Assembly (NCBI GenBank): GCA_042852035.1
Contig: BAAFHK010000001.1
Coordinates: forward strand, 420,001-452,000
DNA length: 32,000 bases
DNA from: Candidatus Saccharimonadota bacterium
GTDB lineage: Bacteria > Patescibacteriota > Gracilibacteria > BD1-5 > UBA2023
Reading direction: 5' to 3'
The notes under the pieces were generated by a model. It was not told the DNA's origin and did not search any database. It saw only the letters and a list, made by a program, of their open reading frames with translations. Of this stretch, positions 3,035 through 32,000 are shown piece after piece. Every line of letters begins with the position of its first letter. The first letter of the stretch is position 1. The translations under genes and the position numbers were made by a program.

Positions 3035-4498
3035 ATGGTTCGAACTCGTTTAGCACCTTCACCTACAGGATATCTCCACATATGATCGCTTCGTACAGCA
3101 CTTTATTGCTATCTCTGGGCAAAAAAGAACCACTGACAATACATTGTTCGCATTGAAGATACTGATAGAACGCGACTTGTTGAAGGAGCGGTTGAGGCAA
3201 TATTAGAAACACATCATGAGCTTTGAATTATGCCAGATGAATGACCCCATCATGATGGTTGATATTGACCGTATACACAGAGTGAAAGACTGAAGGAATA
3301 TGCTCCACGCCTACATAAACTTTGCGATGATTGAACTGCTTACTACTGTTTTTGTTCAAGTGAAAGACTTGATGCCCTTAAAAAGGAGCAGGAAGAATTA
3401 AAGCTTCCTCCAAAATATGATGGCCATTGTCGTCATATTCCCCTTGAAGAAGCAAGAGAAAGAATTGAAAATGGAGAAAAATTTACGATTCGTCTCAAGG
3501 TACCAAAAGGAGAAACTATAATCTTTCAAGACCTTATTCGTGGAAGGATTGAGTTTAAAACAAGCGAAATTGACGACCAGGTTCTTTTGAAATCTGATGG
3601 CGAATTCCCAACATACCACGGTGCAATTGTCATAGATGACCACCTTATGGGAATTACTCATGTTATGCGATGAGAGGAATGGATTAGTTCTATACCAAAA
3701 CAGGTACTTACTGCAAGAGCACTCGGTATCGAACTTCCTCTTTATGCTCATCTTCCTAATGTACTTTGAGCGGATGGAAAAAAACTTTCAAAACGCACTG
3801 GTGATGTTTCTGTGAGTGAATATCTAAAAAAATGATATTTTCCCGAAGCACTTCTAAATTTTCTTGCACTTCTAGGATGGCATCCAAAACAAGACGAGGA
3901 AATTATGAGTATGCAAACAATGATAGAGAAATTTGAAATTACCGATATCCACAAATCATGAGCAATACTTGATCCTGTAAAGCTTGACTGGATGAATGGT
4001 GAATACATCAAAAAAATGGACATTGGAGAACTTCATGAACGATTAGCATCATATTTAAAGCGATACGAACCAGAATTTTATGAATGAGTCTTCTCTCAAC
4101 AAGATTTCGATTACAATGCTCGAATTATACGAGAAGTTCAAGGTCGAATGAAGAAACTTGATGAATTTCGACAACTTACTCTATTTATTTATGGGGGAGC
4201 TGAGATTAAAAAGAATCTTCTCGTAAATCCAAAAATGAAAATAGAATCAGAAAAGGAGTGAATCGAGGCGCTTCAATTTGTTCTTCCTTTGCTAGAGAAT
4301 GCTGATTTTTCATCTCTTGATAGCCTCAAATGACCTATACTTGAATCAATTGCTCAAAGCTGAAAAAAGAATGGTCAAATTCTTTGGCCACTCCGAGTAG
4401 CCCTCTCTGGTGAAGAATTTTCACCGTGAGCATTTGAACTTGCATTTATCCTAGGAAAAGAAAAATGTATCGAGAGAATTTGAAGGTACTTTGTATAA
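3035..4498 (+). CDS. gltX: glutamyl-tRNA synthetase (487 aa)
   Basis: [24 protein letters not shown], with the HIGH-motif Gly encoded by TGA at 3083-3085. Also [11 protein letters not shown] and a KLSKR (KMSKS-type) loop. Many further TGA codons are in frame. Confidence 0.95.
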
Positions 4499-5277: not shown

Positions 5278-6321
5278 ATGAATTTTCACACACGAAATAG
5301 ATACGAAGATCGCAGAAGGGGGTCAAAAAAATCAGGAAACTGAACAAAATTCTTCGCATTCTTTTTATGAGTTCTCTTTGTTCTTCTTTTTTCATATTTT
5401 AGTATACTCTGAGTTTGAGATACGCTTATAAAGTCTTGAACCTATAGCCTCGAAAAAGGCGCAACGGTAATGAGTGTGCCAGATGCATTTTCAATTAAAG
5501 TTAATCCATTTACCTATAAACTTTATATCCGTTTCTTTGCTCCAGAAATAAAGCTCCAAGCATGAACCTATAAAATAAATGAGGAAACTACATTAGAAAA
5601 AATTTTTAGCACCACTCTTCAAAAGCCAATATACAATGATCTTACTATCACCATACTACCAGGATGGAATATGTATGATATTGATAACTATTTGAGTGAA
5701 AAACGTATTCTTGAAGCTGGATCATTTCTTATAGCGGCTCGTGATCATTTCTTTGATCTTAAAAAGAAATATAAATTCCTAGAATGAAAAAATAGTCTAG
5801 AATGATTTCTCTATCCTGACACATACAGAATTCTTCAGTCCTCTGATGCATACATGATTCTCGATAGACTCATTTCCGAATGGGAGAAAAAAATTTGAGA
5901 TCAATATACTTCGCTCGGAGACAGTGCCTACAATGAGCTTATACTTGCATCAATTGTTGAAAGGGAAGAAAGAAATAGCAAAGAGCAGCCAATAGTTGCT
6001 GGTATTCTTGCTAAGAGAGTAAAAGAAAAAATTCCGATGGGAGCAGATGCAACTGTATGTTATGAATATGCCATGACTCAAAAACAATGCACCCCTGAGG
6101 CTATAGCAAAAGTAATAACTATAAAATCCTCATATAATACAAGAAATCAGCTCTGATATCCACCTACACCAATTGCAAATATATCTCTAAAAACTTGGCA
6201 ATCTGTCCTCAATAAATCATCTTCTGAATATTATTACTATCTTCATGATAGCGACGGTATTATTCATTATTGAAAAAATCTTACAGAACATAATCAGAAT
6301 AAAAGACAGTATCTCCAGTAA
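5278..6321 (+). CDS. mltG: endolytic murein transglycosylase MltG/YceG family (347 aa)
   Basis: N-terminal TM helix. YceG-like core LASIVEREERNSKEQPIVAGILAKRVKEKIPMGADATVCY ... YNTRNQLGYPPTPIANIS ... YYYYLHDSDGIIHYGKNLTEHN. Confidence 0.85.
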
Positions 6322-15253: not shown

Positions 15254-15284
15254 AAAAAAAAGAGTTATTTCTAACTCTTTTTTT
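15254..15284. terminator. orphan bidirectional terminator-like hairpin
   Basis: aaaaaaaagagtta-tttc-taactcttttttt. No ORF lies upstream on either strand. Like the 15017 hairpin, it is followed by tttatatactat. Confidence 0.5.
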
Positions 15285-15546
15285 ATATACTATTTATGGC
15301 AGCACTAGTCTTAAAAAGGTAGAACTTTTACAGACTCTAAATAAGTTGATATTGGCTTCAGAGAAGGGAAATACAAGGAACATATTCACTTGATAGTGAA
15401 GGGATTTTTTAGTCTGCAATTTTTACAACTAACTATTTCTTCAACTATGCCAACATTTATTCTTATCTTTGATAGCTCATAAAAGCTAAAAAAACAATTC
15501 AAAAAGTTCCAACATATTCTATTTATATTACTAATTTTTACAACTT

Positions 15547-15801
15547 ATGTACCCATCAATTATTACAAACACACTAGAACTAAATATACCTTACATCATT
15601 ACACTTATTGAAATATGTTCACTTGATGATCCTGAAGGATATGTAGCCTCATTTGATTTTAATAATCCTGAATCCTTTAATGATTTTCTACAAATACAAT
15701 TTTTAGATTCACTTATTAATTGTTGAGTGATTGAAATAGAAGACACCCAAAATTCAATAATAGTGAAAGCAAGAGGAGAATTTCTTACAAAAATTTCTTA
15801 A
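15547..15801 (+). CDS. small acidic hypothetical protein, family A copy 1 (84 aa)
   Basis: ORF MYPSIITNTLELN...FNDFLQIQFLDSLINCGVIEIEDT. Paralogous to 15855-16118, and the upstream leaders are also similar. Confidence 0.55.
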
Positions 15802-15854
15802 TTCAAATCAAACAAACCAGCAATATTCTTTTAATTTTTAACTTTTTATAACTT

Positions 15855-16118
15855 ATGTATCCAACAATAATTAATGATTCCCTTGAGTTCAATATGCTTT
15901 ATGCCTTTAAACTAGTTTACCTATATTTTATCTGTGATATGGAAGAGTTTGTTAATAAAATAGACATCAATGATCCTTCAACTTTTAATGATTATTTACA
16001 AGTACAATTTCTTCTAAAACTTATAGATGATTGAGTAATTGAGGTAGACACAGAGGCTGAGGATGGTGAATCCATAAAGATACAGGTTTATACAGATTGG
16101 ATCACTCCAGTATTTTAG
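15855..16118 (+). CDS. small acidic hypothetical protein, family A copy 2 (87 aa)
   Basis: MYPTIINDSLEFN...FNDYLQVQFLLKLIDDGVIEVDTE is collinear with copy 1. A TGA=Gly occupies the equivalent position (C/D-G-V-I-E) in both copies. Confidence 0.55.
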
Positions 16119-16167
16119 TTTCCAAGCACAGAAACCCTTATTTTATTTATTAACAATTAATACATTT

Positions 16168-16578
16168 ATGACAACAAAAAATCTTTTAGGGGCATACAAT
16201 ATAGTGACTAACCATTTTGAGCAAACATCCTTAGTAAATAGACTATTTGATGATTGAATAATCAGTCACTCTTTTATAGAATATCACATTACTGGTCTTA
16301 CTGAAGAAGAGGAAGAGAGTGGGGAATGGGAAAATTCTATTGATATTTATGAGTGGTTAGTATTCCCAGAGTTGATAGAGTCAGATTATGAGAAACTTAT
16401 TCAAGCATGAATACCTGTTTTAAAGACAGATTATGCTAATTGGGTTGCTACCACCAGCTATGGTTGTCACTATGATATGTTTATTCACCCTGAACTTATC
16501 AAAGCACTCTTTGATATAGAAACAGATTACTTTGAAATAGCAGAGATGAAGAAAAAGAGCCCTTGTTTGATTTCATAA
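16168..16578 (+). CDS. small acidic hypothetical protein, family B copy 1 (136 aa)
   Basis: YEWLVFPELIESDYEKLIQAGIPVLKTDYANWVATTSYGCHYDMFIHPELIKALFDIE. Paralog of 17112-17483. Confidence 0.6.
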
Positions 16579-16619
16579 AAGTGACCTACCCATATTTTAT
16601 TTTAATAATCTTTAAACCA

Positions 16620-16892
16620 ATGAACAATACAAAGTCCAAGAGATCCCCAGCATGAAAACAATTAACCAATGATTCTTTTCCTTGAAGAAGTCCAGAGTCA
16701 GATAGTATTTTCTTAAGATTATCAAGACAGAAACCTGAAGAATTCCATTTTTTAGATAAGATACTTGGTGAATGCTTAGAGAAGACTTTCCAGATTTTAC
16801 CAGCAGATGATGTTCCTGCAAATATTAAGAAGTTCCAAATGCTTGAAGCTATTGATAATCTAGTAATACAACTTCTCCTTCATAACAAATAG
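16620..16892 (+). CDS. hypothetical protein (90 aa)
   Basis: Plus-strand frame open with two TGA=Gly codons. Its composition is protein-like (PEEFHFLDKILGECLEKTFQILPADDVPANIKKFQMLEAIDNL). It is co-oriented with its neighbours and competes with the hydrophobic minus-strand track ORF 16612-16821. Confidence 0.4.
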
Positions 16893-16982
16893 AATTCTCA
16901 TTTCATAATTCTTATTAAAAACCAGTTTAATATCTAACTATTTATGCAGAAGGCAGTATTCCTGAGATGTTCCAATAACAAA

Positions 16983-17099
16983 AGTAATAAAAGTCACCAT
17001 GAATCATAACAATCATTAAAAATTGCAAGGTAGTACACAGTCTCCACCTTGCAATTTTTGTGTTTATGATTGTTGGAAGCGGAGGTGCTTTTTATTACT
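16983..17099 (+). promoter_or_regulatory. extended nested hairpin with conserved loop AGTACACAGTCTCC (copy 1)
   Basis: Outer stem agtaataaaa/ttttattact, middle stem aacaatcat/atgattgtt, inner perfect 14-bp stem aaaaattgcaaggt/accttgcaattttt (17018-17031 / 17046-17059). The 14-nt loop is at 17032-17045. A T-run follows the inner stem. The element ends 12 nt before the ATG at 17112. Confidence 0.5.
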
Positions 17100-17111
17100 A
17101 ACTTTTCTTAT

Positions 17112-17483
17112 ATGAAAGCATCATCTCCTCAATACCTGTCTAACTACTATAAATACGTTCGTTCTCATATCAATCAGACAATGCTTGTCGAAGAATTATT
17201 AAAGAAATCTATCATCTCTTATGACGATATAGAATGAATCTATGACGAAGAAACTGAAGAATATAGGGAAGTGTATCAATGGCTTATATTCAATAATTTT
17301 GATTCAAGAGATTATGAAAAACTCATTGCCAATAATATCCCTGTAATTCAATCTGATTATGAAACTTGGGTTGGTATTACTTCATTCTGAAGTCACTATA
17401 ACCTCTACGTATATCCTGAGCTTATCAATGCACTCTTTGATCTCAATATTTCTTATGAAGATATTCAGAATATCTCTCCGTAA
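17112..17483 (+). CDS. small acidic hypothetical protein, family B copy 2 (123 aa)
   Basis: YQWLIFNNFDSRDYEKLIANNIPVIQSDYETWVGITSFGSHYNLYVYPELINALFDLN is collinear with copy 1. Confidence 0.6.
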
Positions 17484-17500
17484 TAATTGGGAGAGTTTTT
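17474..17500 (+). terminator. rho-independent terminator overlapping the stop of 17112-17483
   Basis: ctctcc-gtaataattg-ggagag followed by ttttt. Confidence 0.6.
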
Positions 17501-18058: not shown

Positions 18059-18076
18059 AGATTGTATTTTTATTAA

Positions 18077-18116
18077 AAATAAATTCTCCATTACTTGCAT
18101 AATAGAGAATTTATTT
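18077..18116 (-). terminator. hairpin downstream of tRNA-Trp
   Basis: aaataaattctc / gagaatttattt is a perfect 12-bp stem with a 16-nt loop. A T-rich tail follows on the minus strand. Confidence 0.5.
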
Positions 18117-18128
18117 TATAAATTAGAA

Positions 18129-18203
18129 TGGCAGCTCTGCTCAGAATCGAACTGAGGTCAACGGCTTTGGAGACCGCTACACTAACCGCTGTGCTACAGA
18201 GCT
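18129..18203 (-). tRNA. trnW: tRNA-Trp (anticodon CCA), CCA-3' encoded, 75 nt
   Basis: Hand-folded cloverleaf: acceptor AGCTCTG/CAGAGCT, D arm GCAC-AGCGGTTA-GTGT, anticodon arm GCGGT-CTCCAAA-GCCGT, 4-nt variable loop, T arm CTCAG-TTCGATT-CTGAG, discriminator G + CCA. A CCA anticodon reads UGG only, so UGA is not Trp here. Confidence 0.9.
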
Positions 18204-22627: not shown

Positions 22628-23905
22628 CTAAAAAATAATACACTCATCATTTTCAAGATCATAGCTTACAGAGATGAGTTCTATGTTCTCATTATCTCCA
22701 TTATGATAATGAAATGATGGTATGCTAGGATTTAAGAAAGCATCTGTTCTAGGATATATGAGATAGAGTTTCTTGGAATGATATTTTCTAGCATAAGCAT
22801 AGAGCTGATACATATCCCCCTGAGAGATTCCATAGTTTCCAGCCTCATCATTTTCATTTATGAGCTTCCACTTTGTATCCATAATGATATTATCATTTTC
22901 AATGTATATATCTGGTTTGAGTTGAAACTTTGGCTTCTCTTTATGGTCTTCTATGAGGGAGTACTTTTTATCCTGAGTTTTTACTATCCATTCTGGTCTT
23001 TTTTCTTTGATTTTCTTGGCTACATAGTTCTCAAAAATCTTCTCCATAGGAAATAGAAGAGAAAAGGCTAAACTATTTCCAGCCATACTCACAATAGATT
23101 CTTCTCTCAGAAATATTCTTACCCAAGAAAGAGTAGGAACATAATAGGAGTGAAGTCTGGAAATATGAGAAGATTGTTCTATATCTTCCTCTATATTGCT
23201 TGATTTAGATATATCATTGAATGCTAGCAGGTATTCCTTTATTCTCTTTTTATTAGCATTATTCTTGCTGAGGGAATTGAGTTTTATAAGGGTGGATTTG
23301 ATGAGTCTATTTTCTGCCACATCCTCAGTAAATTCATCATATTCCACAGCAAATCTTTCTTTATGAAGAAAGTTCCTTCTGATATTTTCCATCACTTTGA
23401 GCCTGCCTTTGAGGAACTTTTCATTGGATTCTATGGTTATATAGTTCTTCTTAATTCCTCTTTTTATGAGAGTACTGAGTTCATCAAGGAAAGAGCCTAT
23501 AAATATCTCTAAAATAGGAAACTTCTGGGTTTTGAGATGAGCCTCATTAACATTCTTAAATGGACTATCTTTCAATGCTTTTAGCATTTTGAGAAATATC
23601 ATTCTTACTACTTTTTCATCTTGTTCTTTGTGAATCTTGGGAAGGATTTCAATAGTTGTGCCATCATGTGTCTGAATTACTCCTACATAATTTTGAGCTT
23701 TTATGATCTTGCCATATTTTTTATGAAAACTCATGGTAAGGATATTTTCTTCTCCATTATTTCATTCTGCTATGAATTTCTCCAAGTCTAAAAATGCTCT
23801 CTCTGAAATAAGAGCATTCTCAGAAGTTGGTTCTACTCATTCTTTGTTATAGAGGAATCCAAACTCTGGAATAGTGATATATGAGTTTGGACTAGTTATG
23901 CTCAT
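22628..23905 (-). CDS. mcrC: McrC-like endonuclease subunit of a McrBC type IV restriction system (425 aa)
   Basis: N-terminus ITIPEFGFLY...AQNYVGVIQTHDGTTIEILPKI. C-terminal nuclease core KPDIYIENDNIIMDTKWKLI...DMYQLYAY. The true ATG at 23905 lies 57 codons upstream of the track start and overlaps the mcrB stop by 14 nt. Confidence 0.85.
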
Positions 23906-26207
23906 AGATTTTTATATATGATGCCTCTGTAATATTTGGATTGAGTCTATATGTCACTTTGTCTTCATACTCTTCATTCTTTATTCCAAGAACTGAGTCT
24001 CTTTTAGAGACAATATCTTGAATAATCTTTTCCTCTCCTTCTTTCCATCATTGCTCTGTATGGTCTCAGAGGATTATCTGGATTTTCTCCCCATCTTCAT
24101 AGAAGTATTCTTGTAAAAGTGGAAGAATAGCTCTCTGGAATATTTCATTCAGCTTTTCTAGTGTTGGAGTGGTTTTGAGTGGAAGAAAAAATGCTTGTCC
24201 CAAAAGATGGTCTCTGTCATAGAGGAATTCTATTCTTTCATTGAGAGTGATAAAAAGCTTCTCTATATCAATATTGCCAACAGAGATTCCAGAGAGGACT
24301 CCACTCTGAGGGGACATCTCAACAAAACTAAATCTTCTTCTGAGTGCTATATCCATAAGAGCAATAGACCTATCTGTGGTATTCATTGTTCCTATGATAT
24401 AGAGATTGTTTGGTACTGTAAATTGTTCTCCTGAATATGGAAGCTTGGCAGTGATTGCTTCATTATTTCCATATCTCTTAGAGGTTTCAATAAGAGTAAT
24501 GAGTTCTCAGAATATCTTGGAAATATTTCCTCTATTAATCTCATCAATGATAAGAACATAGTTCTTTTTTCATTCATTCTTTATAGCTTTTGTGATATTA
24601 TTTTCCTCATCAAACTCTTTGAGTCTCTGATAAAGAGCAAAGAAATAATCAGCATTCCCATTAGCAACAGATTTTGAAGACCTTGAAGGTTTAATATCAT
24701 TTTTGGATTTTATCTTTCCAGAGATGAAATTGCTGTAATCTCTGAGAATTACCTTAGCACTTAATACCTGAAAAGTTTTTCCATTAGAAATATGGAATGA
24801 TTTTACAGAATCTCATTCCTTGGCAACATAGGCTATAATCCAACTTTCTTTTGTAACTCATTTTTCTCAGGGGAACAACTGAGGTCAGAGGGTGGAAACT
24901 CATTTATAATCCTGATATTGAGTTCAAAGTCCTGTGGTTTCACTTTCTTGAATATCATCAATATAGTCTGAATAATTTTTGAGTAACTCTTCAACTAATG
25001 ATTCATTATCTTCTGTTTGAGAGATGGAATAATTACTTTTTGCTGTCTCACAGACTTTCTTAAAAATTCAGGGAACAACTTCATATTTTACTTCCCCATT
25101 TTCTGTTTTAGCTTTGAGCCCTTCTATGAAATCCTCATAAGAAAAAGATTGGTGAAAAGTGGTAAATACCACTTGTCCTTTGGTTCTATATTCATTGAAT
25201 CTTCTGAGGAGTTCAGTTCTATCTTCCTGTTCTAATTCTTCTATACTTTTCTCTTCAATAATTGAAAGAGCATGATTAATAGAATGATATGTTTTTCCAG
25301 TTCATGGAGGTCAATAGAGTATTTGATTGAGAGGAGTATTTTTCATAGATTTTTGAGGAAGAGATATGATTTCAGGGGTAGGAGAGATTTTTTCTTGTTT
25401 TGATACTGGTTCTTTCTTCTCTTCCAGTGAATGCTGAACTACATAGGCAATTCTATCTGCTATGAGATTTTCTTGGAGGATTTCTTTCTCCTCAAGTGTG
25501 AGAAAATCAAAGTCAGGAGTATCTACTTCTACATAAGGTCTATAATCCTCAATTTCACTCTCAAACTGGTTCTTGAATTCCATATAATCTCCTGAGGCAT
25601 CTCCCATCTTGCTATAATCCATACTATGGTCTCAGAGAAATCTGAGAAAGTCATAGGCAATTCCATTAGAGATAAAGTTTTCCTTTTTGGTAAGATTGTA
25701 TATTCCTTCCAATTCAAATACTATTGAGCCTCATACATATTTGAGATCTTGATAGTCTGCTTTTTCAATTTTTTTTCATTCCTGAATTACTTTCAGAAGA
25801 TGAATATATTTCTCCAGAGAATTAGTGAAGTATCCCTTATACATATTAGACTTTGTGAGTCCAATACTAGTTGCAGAGTTTAGATGGAGAAATATATCAT
25901 TTTCTAGTGATTCTAAAATCAAAATAAGGGAAGGATTCTTTAGAAACTCTTTCATTTTGGTAGTAATATCTCTCCAATTAATCTGAGAAGCAAAGTAAAG
26001 TCCATCTACCTTTTTTTGAACTAATAGAAATTCATCAAGGATACTTTGATTATTTTTGATCTTTTCCCACTCATTCAAAATAGTAGTAACTCATTTTCTG
26101 ATATGGAGAAAGTTATCTACATTATGCTTATAAGAAACAGCCTTTGTAAATACATCACTTTGTCTCAGTATATCTTGAATTTGAGAAATCTTAACCTCTG
26201 AAATCAT
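23892..26207 (-). CDS. mcrB: McrB-like AAA+ GTPase subunit with unassigned ~290-aa N-terminal region (771 aa)
   Basis: Walker A ILYGPPGTGKT (both non-GKT Gly are TGA, at 25311-25313 and 25302-25304). Also FHQSFSYEDFIEG, Walker B [25 protein letters not shown], and IIGTMNTTDRSIALMDIALRRRFSFVEM. Track ORFs 24066-24386, 25311-25622 and 25776-26078 share this frame. Confidence 0.9.
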
Positions 26208-29107: not shown

Positions 29108-29199
29108 AAATAAAAGGAGTGTTATATCCAAATGTATATTGCTTACATACACAATCTTTGTGCATCCAATAAAGGAGGTGATATAACACTCCTTTATTT
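29108..29199. repeat. long inverted repeat (~19 bp arms, 53-nt spacer)
   Basis: aaataaaaggagtgttatat (29108-29127) pairs with atataacactcctttattt (29181-29199). Spacer segment gcttacatacaca (29141-29153) is complementary to tgtgtatgtaagc (29246-29258). Confidence 0.6.
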
Positions 29200-29376
29200 C
29201 TAGATGCTCAAAAATGGCATTAAAAAAAGATGCAATTCTTTGAGATGTGTATGTAAGCCTTGCTATTGTAGCTGCGGTTTCATTTTTAGCAAATATTTTC
29301 TTCCTCAGGAGGAATAAAAATAGCTTCTGTTTCAAGAAAAGTCCCCATAGATAAAAAGAAATAAGAATCACAATAT

Positions 29377-29443
29377 AACTCTCTCAGATAAAAGATAAAT
29401 GTAGTACAAGTCTCCACATTTACTTTTCTTTTTTTAGAGAGTT
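29377..29443 (+). promoter_or_regulatory. extended hairpin with conserved loop AGTACAAGTCTCC (copy 2)
   Basis: Outer stem aactctct/agagagtt, middle stem aaaag/ctttt, inner stem aaatgt/acattt. The 13-nt loop is at 29403-29415. A T-rich run follows. The element ends 35 nt before the ATG at 29479. Confidence 0.5.
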
Positions 29444-29478
29444 CTTTTTCATTGTGCTTATTTCCTAATTTTTATCAT

Positions 29479-29793
29479 ATGAAAAGCATTTCCATTTATT
29501 GAAACAACATCTCTTTTAACTTTTCACTTCCTCTGGAGGAAACATGATATATCTGAGAAGATTTTAACTACAAAAATAAAACAGCATATGCTACTCTATG
29601 AATCCATGATCTTATCATAGCTGATTCTGATATTCTCCTTCAACTGATTGTTTGAACTATTTTTCAAGCATTTTATAGTGAAGCTCAAAAGAATAAGTTG
29701 GATTACCTCCAAGTTCTTGTTATTAATAACATAGAAGTGTGGTGTATAGATAATGGAGATAGCATCTGTATTATGTTAAAAGAGGAATATTAA
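29479..29793 (+). CDS. small hypothetical protein (104 aa), first gene of the Hsp70 cluster
   Basis: Open with five TGA=Gly codons: MKSISIYGNNISFNF...HDLIIADSDILLQLIVGTIFQAF...VWCIDNGDSICIMLKEEY. No recognised domain. Confidence 0.5.
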
Positions 29794-29899: not shown

Positions 29900-30379
29900 A
29901 TGGAGATTACTTACGGGCTTTTAGCTATAATAATAGTTTTGTTATGATACAAGATTTACTGTGACCAATTGTCACAAAAGAAATTGAGTAAGCAAATAAA
30001 GGAGTCCGTTGAACCTAAATTTCTTGATATAGCAATCTCTCCAGAATCCCAAAAACTGATCTCTCTTGCAATCGATATATGGAGACTAGAATGAAAAATT
30101 CATAATTCATGAATATCAAAAGATTGACTTGAGGCAGAGAAGATCAAAACTAGCCTTGAGCGGTTAAAAAAATTTATGAATGACTATTGAATTGCAGTAA
30201 AAGACTTCATATGAGATAAATATGTTAATGAGATTAATTTTCTTGAGCTAAAGTGAACTGAGAATACAACAGATAAATCTAAAGATTGAATAATTAAAGA
30301 TACCATTGAGCCAGTAGTGTATGTCAATTGAACTGTTGTAAAAACAGCTAAGGTTATTGTTTATAAATTTATTGCTTAA
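29900..30379 (+). CDS. membrane-anchored GrpE-like nucleotide-exchange-factor candidate (159 aa)
   Basis: N-terminal TM helix YGLLAIIIVLLGY, a helical middle, and a C-terminal beta region GIAVKDFIGDKYVNEINFLELKG...IIKDTIEPVVYVNGTVVKTAKVIVYK. That region resembles the GrpE C-terminus pattern (G..FDP..HeA ... GY...rvlRpA.V.V). Ends 10 nt before the Hsp70 ATG. Confidence 0.4.
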
Positions 30380-30389
30380 AAAATCATAT

Positions 30390-32000
30390 ATGCCTACCAT
30401 CCAAATTTGAATTGATTTATGAACCACAAATTCTGCAATTGCAATTAATAAATCAGGAAAGACCGAAATAATTAAGAATTTTGAAAGAGATGAATTTACT
30501 CCTTCAGTCTACTGATTCGATAAAGCCAAGAATCCTCTTGTATGAAAGCGTGCTTATGAAAAGCTTTACAAATATGCTGATAGTGAGGATATTTGAAACT
30601 TCAAATCTGAGATAAAGAGACTAATGTGAACTCCTGAAATTACTTATTTTCCAAGAGTTGAAAAAAGCATGAAAGCAGAAGATATTTCTGCTGAGATATT
30701 AAAATATCTTAAAAGTACGGCACTGAAACAATATCCAGATCTTGAAACTAATTGAGTAGTTATTACAGTGCCAGCACATTTTTCAACTATAGAATCAGAA
30801 GCTACTAAGAGGGCTGGTGAACTTGCTTGATTCAAAAAAGTTGTATTATTACAAGAGCCTATTGCTGCAGCAATAGCATATGGCTTTTCTGCTGATAAAA
30901 ATGCAAACTGGCTCATATACGACCTCTGAGGCGGCACGTTTGATACAGCTATAATCCAATCCATGGATGGTTTATTAAATATTTTATCAAGCAAGGGAGA
31001 TAATTTTCTCTGATGAAAAGATTTTGATTGGGCTATTGTAGATAAGATATTTATTCCAAAAATCCTAGAAAAATTTAATTTACTAAATTTTAATAGAGGA
31101 AATGAAAAATACAGAAATGCATTTAACCTGTTAAAATGATTTGCTGAAAATGCTAAAAAAATGCTCACATATGATAATGAGGTTACTATTGAGATTGATA
31201 AAATTTGAATGGATGACAATGAAAAGGAAATTTATATGAATATAACTTTAACTCGAAAAGAATTTGAAGAGCTAATAAATCCTTTTATTAAGAAATCAAT
31301 ATCACTTGTAGAAGAAACTATTAAAGAATCATGAATTAGTAAAAATAAAATAGATAAGATTGTCCTTGTTGGATGAAGCACACAAACCCCTTATATTAAA
31401 GAAAAGTTAGAAAAAGAAATTGGCATCTCCGTGGACTCAAGTGTTGATCCTCTCACTGTGGTAGCATATGGAGCATCTGTATATGCACAAACTCAAGTTA
31501 TAGAAATAGAGAAAGATAATAAAAAAACTTATAATTCCGAGTTACATAATATAAAATTGAATTTCGAGACCGTTACTACTGAAAGTGAGGAAACTATAAG
31601 TGGTATAATTGACGGACTTGAGGAAAACAAGGAATACTATCTGCAAATTCAAAGTGAAAGTGGTTATTATTCAAGCAATAAGATCCTTATTAGAAATTGA
31701 AAATTTATTACAGATGTTCAAGTTGAATCAGGAAAAGTAAACCTTTATTGGATATATTTATTTGATTCATCATGATGAGTTTTAGAGCTATCTACAGATA
31801 GTTTCTCAATAACTCATGGATTAACGGTGGGAGCAATACCAATACCATCAAGTATTGGTGTGTCTATAGCGAGACAAAATAGCGATACACTGTCTTGGCA
31901 ATCAGAAATGTTTTGGTTCTTTGAAAAAAATTCAAAATTACCATTATCTAAGACTCATGAATTTAAAACAACGAGCACAATTAGAAAATGAAGTGCTGAA
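30390..32000 (+). CDS. Hsp70-family ATPase, non-canonical C-terminal region; 3' end beyond the window
   Basis: IQIGIDLGTTNSAIA (Gly = TGA at 30408 and 30420), VVITVPAHFS, LLQEPIAAAIAYG, LIYDLGGGTFD (TGA at 30927), VLVGGSTQTPYIKEKL, DPLTVVAYGASVYA. No DVTPLSLGIE-type linker follows the NBD. Instead there is a ~110-aa unrelated segment, then ITHGLTVGAIPIPSSIGVSIA. Confidence 0.9.

Follow-up and report, generated by a model that had tools for sequence, protein, structure and literature searches.

A family of conserved hairpins on mobile elements of many bacterial phyla as candidate single-stranded-DNA promoters, with two copies in a Gracilibacteria contig

Described systems and their likeness to the hairpins

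The expression of anti-defence genes by F-like plasmids before these become double-stranded is explained by single-stranded-DNA promoters. Such promoters, named Frpo or ssi, are known from IncF and IncI plasmids, where they are active only before complementary-strand synthesis and drive anti-restriction, ssb and psiB-type genes (PMC11541004, PMC12672017, PMC13478746). Both transcription and priming have been attributed to Frpo itself (PMC11541004 ref. 6; PMC12672017). The hairpins analysed here, two of which lie in a window of 32,000 nucleotides (the whole stretch of DNA under study), resemble the described members – Frpo1 and Frpo2 of F, ssi1 to ssi3 of ColIb-P9, and classes 1 to 3 of pESBL – in combining a hairpin on the template strand with rebuilt -35 and -10 elements, a mismatched -10 and the presence of several copies. 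They depart from Frpo in their length (~80-120 nt against ~300 nt), in a -35 that abuts an invariant structured cap rather than an A/T-rich UP element, and in their occurrence in many phyla and on filamentous-phage-like elements instead of in Enterobacterales. To our knowledge, single-stranded-DNA promoters have so far been known by sequence only from enterobacterial IncF and IncI plasmids. Our family model scored at best 17 bits in the F leading region, and no sequence similarity to Frpo1 and Frpo2 of F or ssi1 to ssi3 of ColIb-P9 was found.

Hairpins B and C of the Ff minus-strand origin are recognised by sigma-70 RNA polymerase, which lays down a primer of ~20 nt and serves no gene. The present family would likewise have an entering-strand hairpin as a promoter mimic and, in inovirus-like loci, has an intergenic position beside Rep; it differs in the antisense ArdC-N-like gene that starts ~100 nt downstream, and the sequences are unrelated. 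In ssoA (RSB and the CS-6 loop, TAGCGT), which functions after conjugative entry, transcription proceeds toward the loop and halts at CS-6. Common to ssoA and our family would be a strand- and orientation-specific single-stranded hairpin for host RNA polymerase, with a conserved apex and variable stems. In our family, by contrast, the boxes are directed away from the cap, a different sequence is conserved, and one element may bear many copies, each linked to a gene. A hairpin whose central bubble mimics the open complex is also found in 6S RNA and in synthetic fork-junction or bubble promoters, but 6S is an RNA decoy, while our family would consist of DNA and be productively transcribed. The attC sites of integrons carry conserved R and L boxes at the stem base and a variable centre, and stand at the 3' end of cassettes. 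The present hairpins show the opposite arrangement, with a conserved centre and a variable base, and are tied to the start of the following ORF. The STAXI and radC motifs (RF01728, RF01754) share with our family a location near ssb, antirestriction, radC and integrase genes, and a single-stranded-DNA role was considered for STAXI (PMC2864571); their structures and sequences differ, however, and neither was detected by Rfam at the two sites described below.

Two window hairpins and the family to which they belong

The window is part of a 750-kb contig and therefore chromosomal. Under the standard code it is broken into short ORFs, whereas long genes emerge when TGA is read as sense: ORFs of at least 100 aa, summed over six frames, amount to 49.8 kb with TGA coding and to 9.3 kb with the standard code. 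Because TGA also occupies positions at which glycine is expected in conserved proteins (for example in the HIGS motif of glutamyl-tRNA synthetase), we regard the window as part of a code-25 genome of the Gracilibacteria type. Both hairpins lie inside a mobile-element-derived gene array of this Gracilibacteria contig.

Site 1 is a complete nested hairpin at 16983-17099, recovered in RNA and DNA folds and assigned to the minus strand by an asymmetry at the family level; taken alone, within the window only, its two strands fold about equally. It ends 12 nt short of the ATG at 17112, and its RNA folding energy of -44.5 kcal/mol (z = -7.6) was matched by none of the shuffles. The nesting and the perfect 14-bp inner stem (17018-17031 with 17046-17059) that had been proposed for site 1 were recovered, while the two further stems, earlier put at 9 and 10 bp, measured as a second stem of 12 nt at 92% (17008-17019 with 17063-17074) and an outer stem with 16-nt arms (16983-16998 with 17084-17099). 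Site 2, a weaker copy on the minus strand, extends over 29356-29465 around the element first described at 29377-29443, as drawn from its DNA fold and covariance-model match, with z -5.2 on the minus strand against z -3.9 on the plus strand. The near-identical centres of the two hairpins form a shared core longer than first described, GTAGTACA(C)AGTCTCCAC, of 18 and 17 nt at 17030-17047 and 29401-29417; from window shuffles, 0.00 and 0.02 core matches would be expected, even at a tolerance of 3 mismatches. When the family was turned into a covariance model, this model matched the window in exactly two places, both on the minus strand, at 65.5 bits (site 1) and 61 bits (site 2). A survey of window hairpins agreed that the remainder have short, unrelated loops.

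A scan for the exact core yielded 20 loci on viral contigs and at least 118 when one genome per species was searched. Among the matches listed, 129 of 155 had a hairpin context with copy-specific arms, which places the family above 120 copies; the counts below refer to 122 dereplicated copies among the matches listed, or to a diverse subset of 65 with flank identity below 70%. The core was fixed by the search pattern, and its invariance is for that reason partly circular, only ~20 variant caps having been seen. Compensatory changes occur at all 12 variable stem pairs of the 65 diverse copies, in which 87.5% of cells are paired, compared with 69% in shuffles and ~45% with the partners slid. In one ortholog (L186), the hairpin has been kept through double compensatory changes, and the -10 is retained; a further homolog locus (L187/L188) has no cap-type hairpin and contains only a different long one. 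The original prediction of a functional conserved structure, rather than a simple terminator, is thus sustained by more than 120 further copies with a conserved centre and dissimilar but pairing stems. The position just upstream of a small ORF recurs in these copies, and the search for further members on which the prediction had staked itself found them, with covariation, in many phyla.

The carriers include Saccharibacteria, Gracilibacteria, Peribacteria and other Patescibacteria/CPR, as well as Bacillota, Campylobacterota, Alpha-, Beta- and Gammaproteobacteria, Bacteroidota, Ignavibacteria and Planctomycetota; copies were also found on filamentous-phage-like contigs. Cultured carriers are Thomasclavelia cocleata DSM 1551, Gallibacter intestinalis, Magnetospirillum moscoviense BB-1, Paramagnetospirillum caucaseum and Moraxella pluranimalium. 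Some elements bear several copies on one strand: Thomasclavelia cocleata, whose element lies at about 128-152 kb of NZ_FOIN01000003, has six over ~24 kb, and another locus (L101) has nine within 8 kb. BLAST of the cap gave no true match in GenBank phages (50,697 records), PLSDB (72,556 plasmids) or complete E. coli genomes (5,426). A near-match in PLSDB, from Acetoanaerobium (L139), is unannotated and stands outside any hairpin context, and was set aside. When the window and 17 loci were searched with Rfam 15 at gathering threshold, nothing but tRNA was reported, apart from one group I intron elsewhere; over both sites, E<=10 added nothing meaningful. A full-text literature search for the loop and cap strings returned unrelated primers only, and the Frpo tables in the supplement of Samuel et al. 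do not contain the loop string. As far as could be found, the hairpin family is undescribed in the searchable literature.

The strand on which the structure is maintained is the reverse complement of the one read originally. It is the more stable strand in 116 of 122 copies with DNA parameters and in 113 of 122 with RNA parameters, and it carries 273 G·T pairs, against 53 on the other strand; copies with more G·T on the reverse complement outnumber the reverse by 104 to 5. A G·T pair becomes an A·C mismatch on the other strand, and selection has therefore acted on the strand antisense to the downstream ORF. On this folding strand, what had been described as a 14-nt loop (17032-17045 in site 1) is mostly base-paired, and forms a cap, GGTGG-A-GAC[apex]GTA-CTACC, with a variable apex of 2-5 nt or a mini-hairpin, often C-GAA-G. 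In site 1 the cap lies at 17026-17051 and reads CAAG-GTGG-A-GAC-TGT-GTA-CTAC-CTTG on the minus strand. The closing CAAG/CTTG is 90% conserved, though it was not required by the search. In site 2 the cap core (29401-29417, minus strand GTGGAGACTTGTACTAC) is closed by AAAT/ATTT in place of CAAG/CTTG, and closures of the AAAT/ATTG type also occur in Gracilibacteria and Peribacteria copies (L035, L086, L113).

Diverged caps retain GGTGGAGAC...GTACTACC while the centre is swapped for mini-hairpins; the variants seen were CGAAG, CCGAAGG, GCGAAGC, CACGAAGTG, GGCGCAGCC and GTGAAAC. Apex mini-hairpins of the C-GAA-G, GCGAAGC and C-GCA-G kinds, which are GNA triloops closed by C·G, occur only on the folding strand, the other strand presenting TTC loops instead. 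According to Hirao, Yoshizawa and colleagues, GNA mini-hairpins of this sort are reportedly extraordinarily stable in DNA. Since the apex variants form such triloops, the cap can be read as a helix (G-C, G-C, T-A, G·T, G-C) with a bulged A, followed by G·A, A-T, C-G and a small apex. One copy (L189) shows a compensatory change from G-C to T-A in the lower helix.

Putative promoter anatomy, served genes and host elements

On the folding strand, the family consensus places a -35-like cTTGA(C/T) directly 3' of the cap, and a -10-like TAnAAT follows at an offset of 21-24 from the cap in 87 of the 122 copies. Within the diverse subset, TAnnnT is present at offsets 20-24 in 42 of 65 copies, the other 23 having no strict TAnnnT, while a correctly placed -10 occurs on the sense strand in none of the 65. 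The spacer between the two boxes, at about 14-16 nt, is short, and the cap sits where an UP element would, yet is not A/T-rich. In the predicted folds, 65-95% of positions are paired between the -35 and the first T of the -10; pairing then drops to ~25% over ~10 positions, from the A at -11 to about +1, and returns to 50-60% beyond. As modelled, the geometry of the stem is that of a pre-melted, open promoter, with the -35 and spacer in duplex form, the -10 single-stranded and the downstream part again duplex. The T-runs earlier taken as a sign of termination correspond to the A/T-rich spacer of this promoter arm. As duplex DNA, the same boxes may constitute a leftward promoter, and would not be obviously silent.

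The two window copies can be placed on this scheme. In site 1, the cap is followed on the 3' side of the folding strand, with no gap, by a -35-like hexamer, TTGCAA (17023-17028, minus strand), which is paired within the inner stem; the -10 hexamer, TATGAT (17003-17008, minus strand), is separated from it by a spacer of 14 nt and stands at offset 21. A 9x9 internal loop supplies the putative bubble, whose unpaired non-template side, from the A at -11 onward, is at 16999-17007 and whose template side is at 17075-17083 (both on the minus strand). The template half of the outer stem (17084-17099, minus strand), paired with 16983-16998, would form the duplex downstream of the bubble. Because site 1 fits the promoter geometry point for point, the nested architecture that had first drawn attention is explained stem by stem. 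Given the usual distance of 7 nt from the -10, the plus-sense RNA is predicted to start at about 17084-17087; a start at about 17085 would be 27 nt before the ATG at 17112. With its predicted start at the 3' foot of the hairpin, the mRNA would lack the hairpin. Site 2 has a weak -35-like hexamer, TTTATC (29394-29399, minus strand), and a -10 hexamer, TATATT (29372-29377, minus strand), at offset 23, the family mode being 22-23.

The relation of the hairpins to their neighbouring genes is one-sided. In greedy, non-overlapping gene calls, which are mechanical ORF calls and not curated, the gene to the right (in the orientation of the original reading) is co-oriented in 101 cases and opposed in 16, and the distance from the cap to the start codon is usually 60-100 nt, with a median of 77 nt. 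The gene to the left is unbiased (57 against 59) and lies at a variable distance. Tests using any ORF of at least 60 aa, or coverage over 800 nt, returned only a moderate orientation bias. Co-orientation of the right-hand gene at a fixed distance, with no bias of the left-hand gene, fits a hairpin that acts as a promoter for the former. The genes served encode ArdC-N (an anti-restriction protein that binds single-stranded DNA), RadC-like JAB, DUF3768, DUF7249, DUF2958, DUF3846, DprA, PC4, PIF1 helicase, ParA, Phd antitoxin and amidoligase. Close to them, genes were seen for topoisomerase III, for an ADP-ribosyltransferase of polyvalent proteins and for a MobA/VirD2 relaxase accompanied by a NikA-like protein.

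What the host elements probably have in common is their entry as single-stranded DNA. Four loci contain a relaxase; in all of them it points the same way as the served genes, and in three it has the hairpin upstream. The leading-region genes and tra genes of the F plasmid are arranged in the same way. By analogy, the folding strand of these loci would be the transferred one. A widespread filamentous-phage-like subgroup (L005, L006, L009, L019) encodes a Zot assembly ATPase, Rep (ORF2/G2P) and a large serine recombinase, and these inovirus-like loci have a single intergenic hairpin beside the Rep gene. Here Rep, Zot and the other large genes have the folding strand as their sense strand, and by analogy with Ff phages this would be the strand that is packaged. 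Only the served ArdC-N-like gene runs antisense in these loci, and hence it alone could be expressed from the incoming strand. In Saccharibacteria, copies reside on small islands with a Replication-relaxation protein (Replic_Relax) and a serine recombinase.

We consider it likely, on the sequence evidence set out above, that the hairpins are single-stranded-DNA promoters of mobile elements which enter cells as single strands, namely conjugative or mobilizable elements, small integrative elements and filamentous phages. The most likely relation to Frpo would then be one of similar function and unrelated sequence. The strand antisense to the neighbouring gene, once single-stranded, would collapse into the long hairpin, nucleated and closed by the cap. 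The cap-proximal stem would rebuild a double-stranded -35 (TTGAC) and spacer, the internal loop would hold the -10 (TAnAAT) open over positions -11 to about +1, and the outer stem would serve as downstream duplex. Owing to this folded geometry, a sigma-70-type RNA polymerase of the host would meet a ready-made open complex. The polymerase, presumably recruited on the entering strand, would move toward the 5' end of the folded template strand, which is rightward in the window, and produce the mRNA of the small gene. Synthesis of the complementary strand should end this expression, as the -35 and -10 then point away from the gene.

Competing explanations, significance and the genes of the window

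The sense-strand RNA model of the original prediction, in which a terminator or attenuator/antiterminator is bound by a loop-specific factor, fares poorly against the strand asymmetry: the sense strand is the less stable one in the great majority of copies, holds five-fold fewer wobbles, and presents TTC loops at the apex where the opposite strand forms GAA loops of the DNA type. About half of the copies, moreover, lie in divergent intergenic regions, with no upstream transcript to terminate, and no Rfam match was obtained. The stems are also long, A/T-rich and interrupted beneath a conserved apex, which is not the form of an intrinsic terminator, with its short G+C-rich stem and small loop ahead of a U-run. 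The model draws on the sense RNA of site 1, which is very stable and followed by a T-run, and this RNA may, as a side effect, terminate read-through from 16620-16892 and so add an insulating role; as an account of the family, we find the model extremely improbable. It is also quite unlikely that the boxes form an ordinary double-stranded promoter firing leftward, with the cap as a protein-binding or insulating element and the hairpin as a palindromic operator or terminator. The minus-oriented -35 and -10 would indeed work as duplex, and a leftward gene is there in 59 cases, but the bias and the fixed distance belong to the right-hand gene. In arrays such as L053, L101 and L046, all genes would be antisense to such a promoter, and it accounts neither for the excess of G·T on one strand nor for compensation at 12 or more pairs, the -10 bubble and the DNA mini-hairpins at the apex.

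If the hairpin were only a complementary-strand (minus-strand or single-strand) origin, at which RNA polymerase or primase lays down a short primer, as in Ff phages or at ssoA, the adjacent gene would be incidental. The inovirus-like elements, with one intergenic copy next to the Rep gene, suit this idea, the promoter-like geometry would serve priming equally well, and the Ff origins are reportedly kept in this intergenic region (Higashitani 1997, Zenkin 2006). We nevertheless judge an origin-only role unlikely, given up to nine copies in 8 kb, each 60-100 nt before an ORF on the correct strand, where one per replicon would be enough, and given a link to the right-hand gene that priming does not need. 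Priming of the complementary strand may instead be a second role of the hairpin, compatible with the single-stranded-DNA promoter, whose transcript could also act as the primer. Very unlikely, in our estimation, is a single-stranded recombination site (an attC-like cassette) or a boundary site of integrative elements for the serine recombinases nearby. Recombination gives no role to the bubble or to a TAnAAT at fixed offset, the hairpin goes with the start of the following ORF and not with the end of the preceding one, and it is also present on relaxase plasmids without such recombinases within the 8-kb stretches examined. Arrays in which hairpins and ORFs alternate do resemble integron cassettes, large serine recombinases are frequent nearby, and a Saccharibacteria hairpin lies near one edge of its island.

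Some narrower candidates were also rejected. A link to the tRNA-Trp anticodon arm, suggested by the heptamer GTCTCCA as a possible anticodon mimic, is a matter of chance: the heptamer occurs 7 times in the window, where 2.6 would be expected, and it stands on the strand opposite to the one that folds. Pairing of the loop CUCC with an anti-Shine-Dalgarno, or a Shine-Dalgarno (GGAG) on the other strand, misfits the spacing to start codons, and was dropped also because the mRNA is predicted to lack the hairpin. An HUH rolling-circle nick site in the loop, to which TACTAC/CTTGA bears some resemblance, is at odds with the many copies per element and the promoter geometry. The primosome-assembly hexamer AAGCGG, seen in site 1 and in L001, is present in only 4 of 122 copies.

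If they act as single-stranded-DNA promoters, the hairpins would extend this principle to many phyla, to ultrasmall CPR bacteria and to filamentous phages. Their signature is compact and easily searchable, and could mark the transferred or packaged strand of uncultivated elements; it would also single out many small gene families, dozens of them uncharacterised, whose products probably act in establishment or anti-defence. A pre-melted open-complex geometry would, in addition, give structural and biochemical studies of RNA polymerase a clean substrate. A bolder proposal, which we put forward tentatively and regard as somewhat doubtful, is that the invariant cap, with its bulged A and its G·T and G·A pairs, is a universal docking or folding module; in most bacterial phyla, CPR among them, it would allow the resident RNA polymerase to transcribe any entering single-stranded DNA immediately. 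The routes of entry would then be conjugation, filamentous-phage infection and perhaps natural transformation, and the motif would tag 'first-expressed' establishment and anti-defence genes, with DUF3768, DUF7249 and the family of 17112-17483 as candidates for new functions of this kind.

In the window itself, the gene that site 1 would serve (17112-17483, plus strand) encodes 123 aa under code 25, belongs to no Pfam family and is a paralog of 16168-16578. The first gene that site 2 would serve (29479-29793, plus strand) encodes 104 aa and likewise has no Pfam family; next on this strand come 29900-30379 and an Hsp70-like gene that begins at 30390. Pfam, applied to 20 window proteins around the sites, recognised only Hsp70 and McrBC (McrC); the hairpin-adjacent ORFs were without a family, and no relaxase, T4SS, Rep or recombinase was seen among these proteins. 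Both copies are presumably still active; as the window shows no recombinase, transfer or inovirus genes, they may also belong to a decayed or partial island, or be relics. Relatives of the served genes occur in comparable settings elsewhere. The gene behind site 2 has a homolog of 54% identity in another Gracilibacteria MAG (L054). For 17112-17483, homologs at 57-93% identity have this hairpin immediately in front of them in Magnetospirillum (L023), Paramagnetospirillum (L044), one further locus (L116) and two Gracilibacteria-type contigs (L186, L189). The small-ORF array at 15283-17500 is homologous to an array in the former of these contigs that starts right after a large serine recombinase, and a more distant homolog lies between an integrase and a cluster of NikA, relaxase and coupling protein.

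Hairpin carriers in viral contigs and mobile elements

The candidate single-stranded DNA promoters proposed for the window (site 1, 16983-17099; site 2, 29356-29465) have relatives whose arms are, in one group of loci, nearly identical to one another (L005, L006, L009, L019, L020, L027, L033, L048, L066, L071, L089, L092, L095, L122 and L126). This group comprises five viral contigs together with metagenome-assembled genomes whose bins were assigned to Falkowbacteria, Saccharibacteria, Gammaproteobacteria and even Methanobacteriaceae. Of the viral contigs, the four that were examined (L005, L006, L009 and L019) all proved inovirus-like, carrying Zot, Rep G2P, a serine recombinase and an ArdC-N-like gene. 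The near-identity of the arms across viral contigs and such diverse bins suggests that either the phage is very mobile or mis-binning is frequent. A group I intron was also recorded in the L019 contig (1241-1482; Rfam, 92 bits).

In Saccharibacteria, loci such as L028, L045, L070 and L041 share a recurrent module, ordered as hairpin, small gene (DUF3768 or DUF7249), Replication-relaxation gene (PF13814; opposite strand) and large serine recombinase, which resembles a small integrative mobilizable element that is common in these bacteria. In L101 (contig CAVESC010000005.1, 1-8000), nine hairpins, all on the same strand, are spread over 8 kb and precede DprA, toxin-antitoxin, ParB-like and amidoligase genes. 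Six of the nine have extended apical mini-hairpins: five with the apexes GGTAC, GTGGAAC, GTGAAAC, AGGTACC and GATAC, and a sixth with the cap, the conserved hairpin centre, in the form GGAGAT...ATACTAC.

A homolog of the 123-aa protein encoded behind site 1 (17112-17483) occurs in L187/L188 (region 5760-6000), within an element bearing an integrase, NikA, a relaxase and a TraG-type coupling protein. The long hairpin preceding it (z -3.5) is of a different kind and lacks the cap, and possibly represents another class of single-stranded DNA promoter.

Gene neighbourhood of the two sites

Around site 1, small acidic ORFs form an array of lowered G+C (15283-17500) that includes two paralog pairs (15547-15801 with 15855-16118, and 16168-16578 with 17112-17483). 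The array is homologous to one in another Gracilibacteria genome (L186, 2745-6960; GCA_013268835.1), which begins directly behind a large serine recombinase that has no counterpart in the window. A tRNA-Trp(CCA) gene (18129-18203, minus strand), immediately preceded by an 18-nt inverted repeat of 94% identity (18076-18117), borders the low-G+C island, and the two may mark an integration site.

Between the sites lies a McrBC-type restriction system (22628-26207, minus strand), in which McrC (Pfam, E 2e-95) follows a 772-aa AAA-type McrB-like gene. Roughly 200 nt away from site 2 is a perfect 16-nt inverted repeat (29113-29128 and 29180-29195; 51-nt spacer) that is free of the cap motif. In the operon behind site 2, the third gene (30390-32000, plus strand) encodes an Hsp70-like ATPase (Pfam HSP70, E 3e-77) whose C-terminal part is non-canonical; this is an unusual cargo for a unit presumed to be expressed upon entry.

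Genetic code of the window

TGA serves as a sense codon (Gly) throughout 1-32000, as exemplified by the HIGS motif of the GluRS gene (3035-4498). This usage fits the code 25 of Gracilibacteria and Absconditabacteria; the contig holding the window spans 750 kb.
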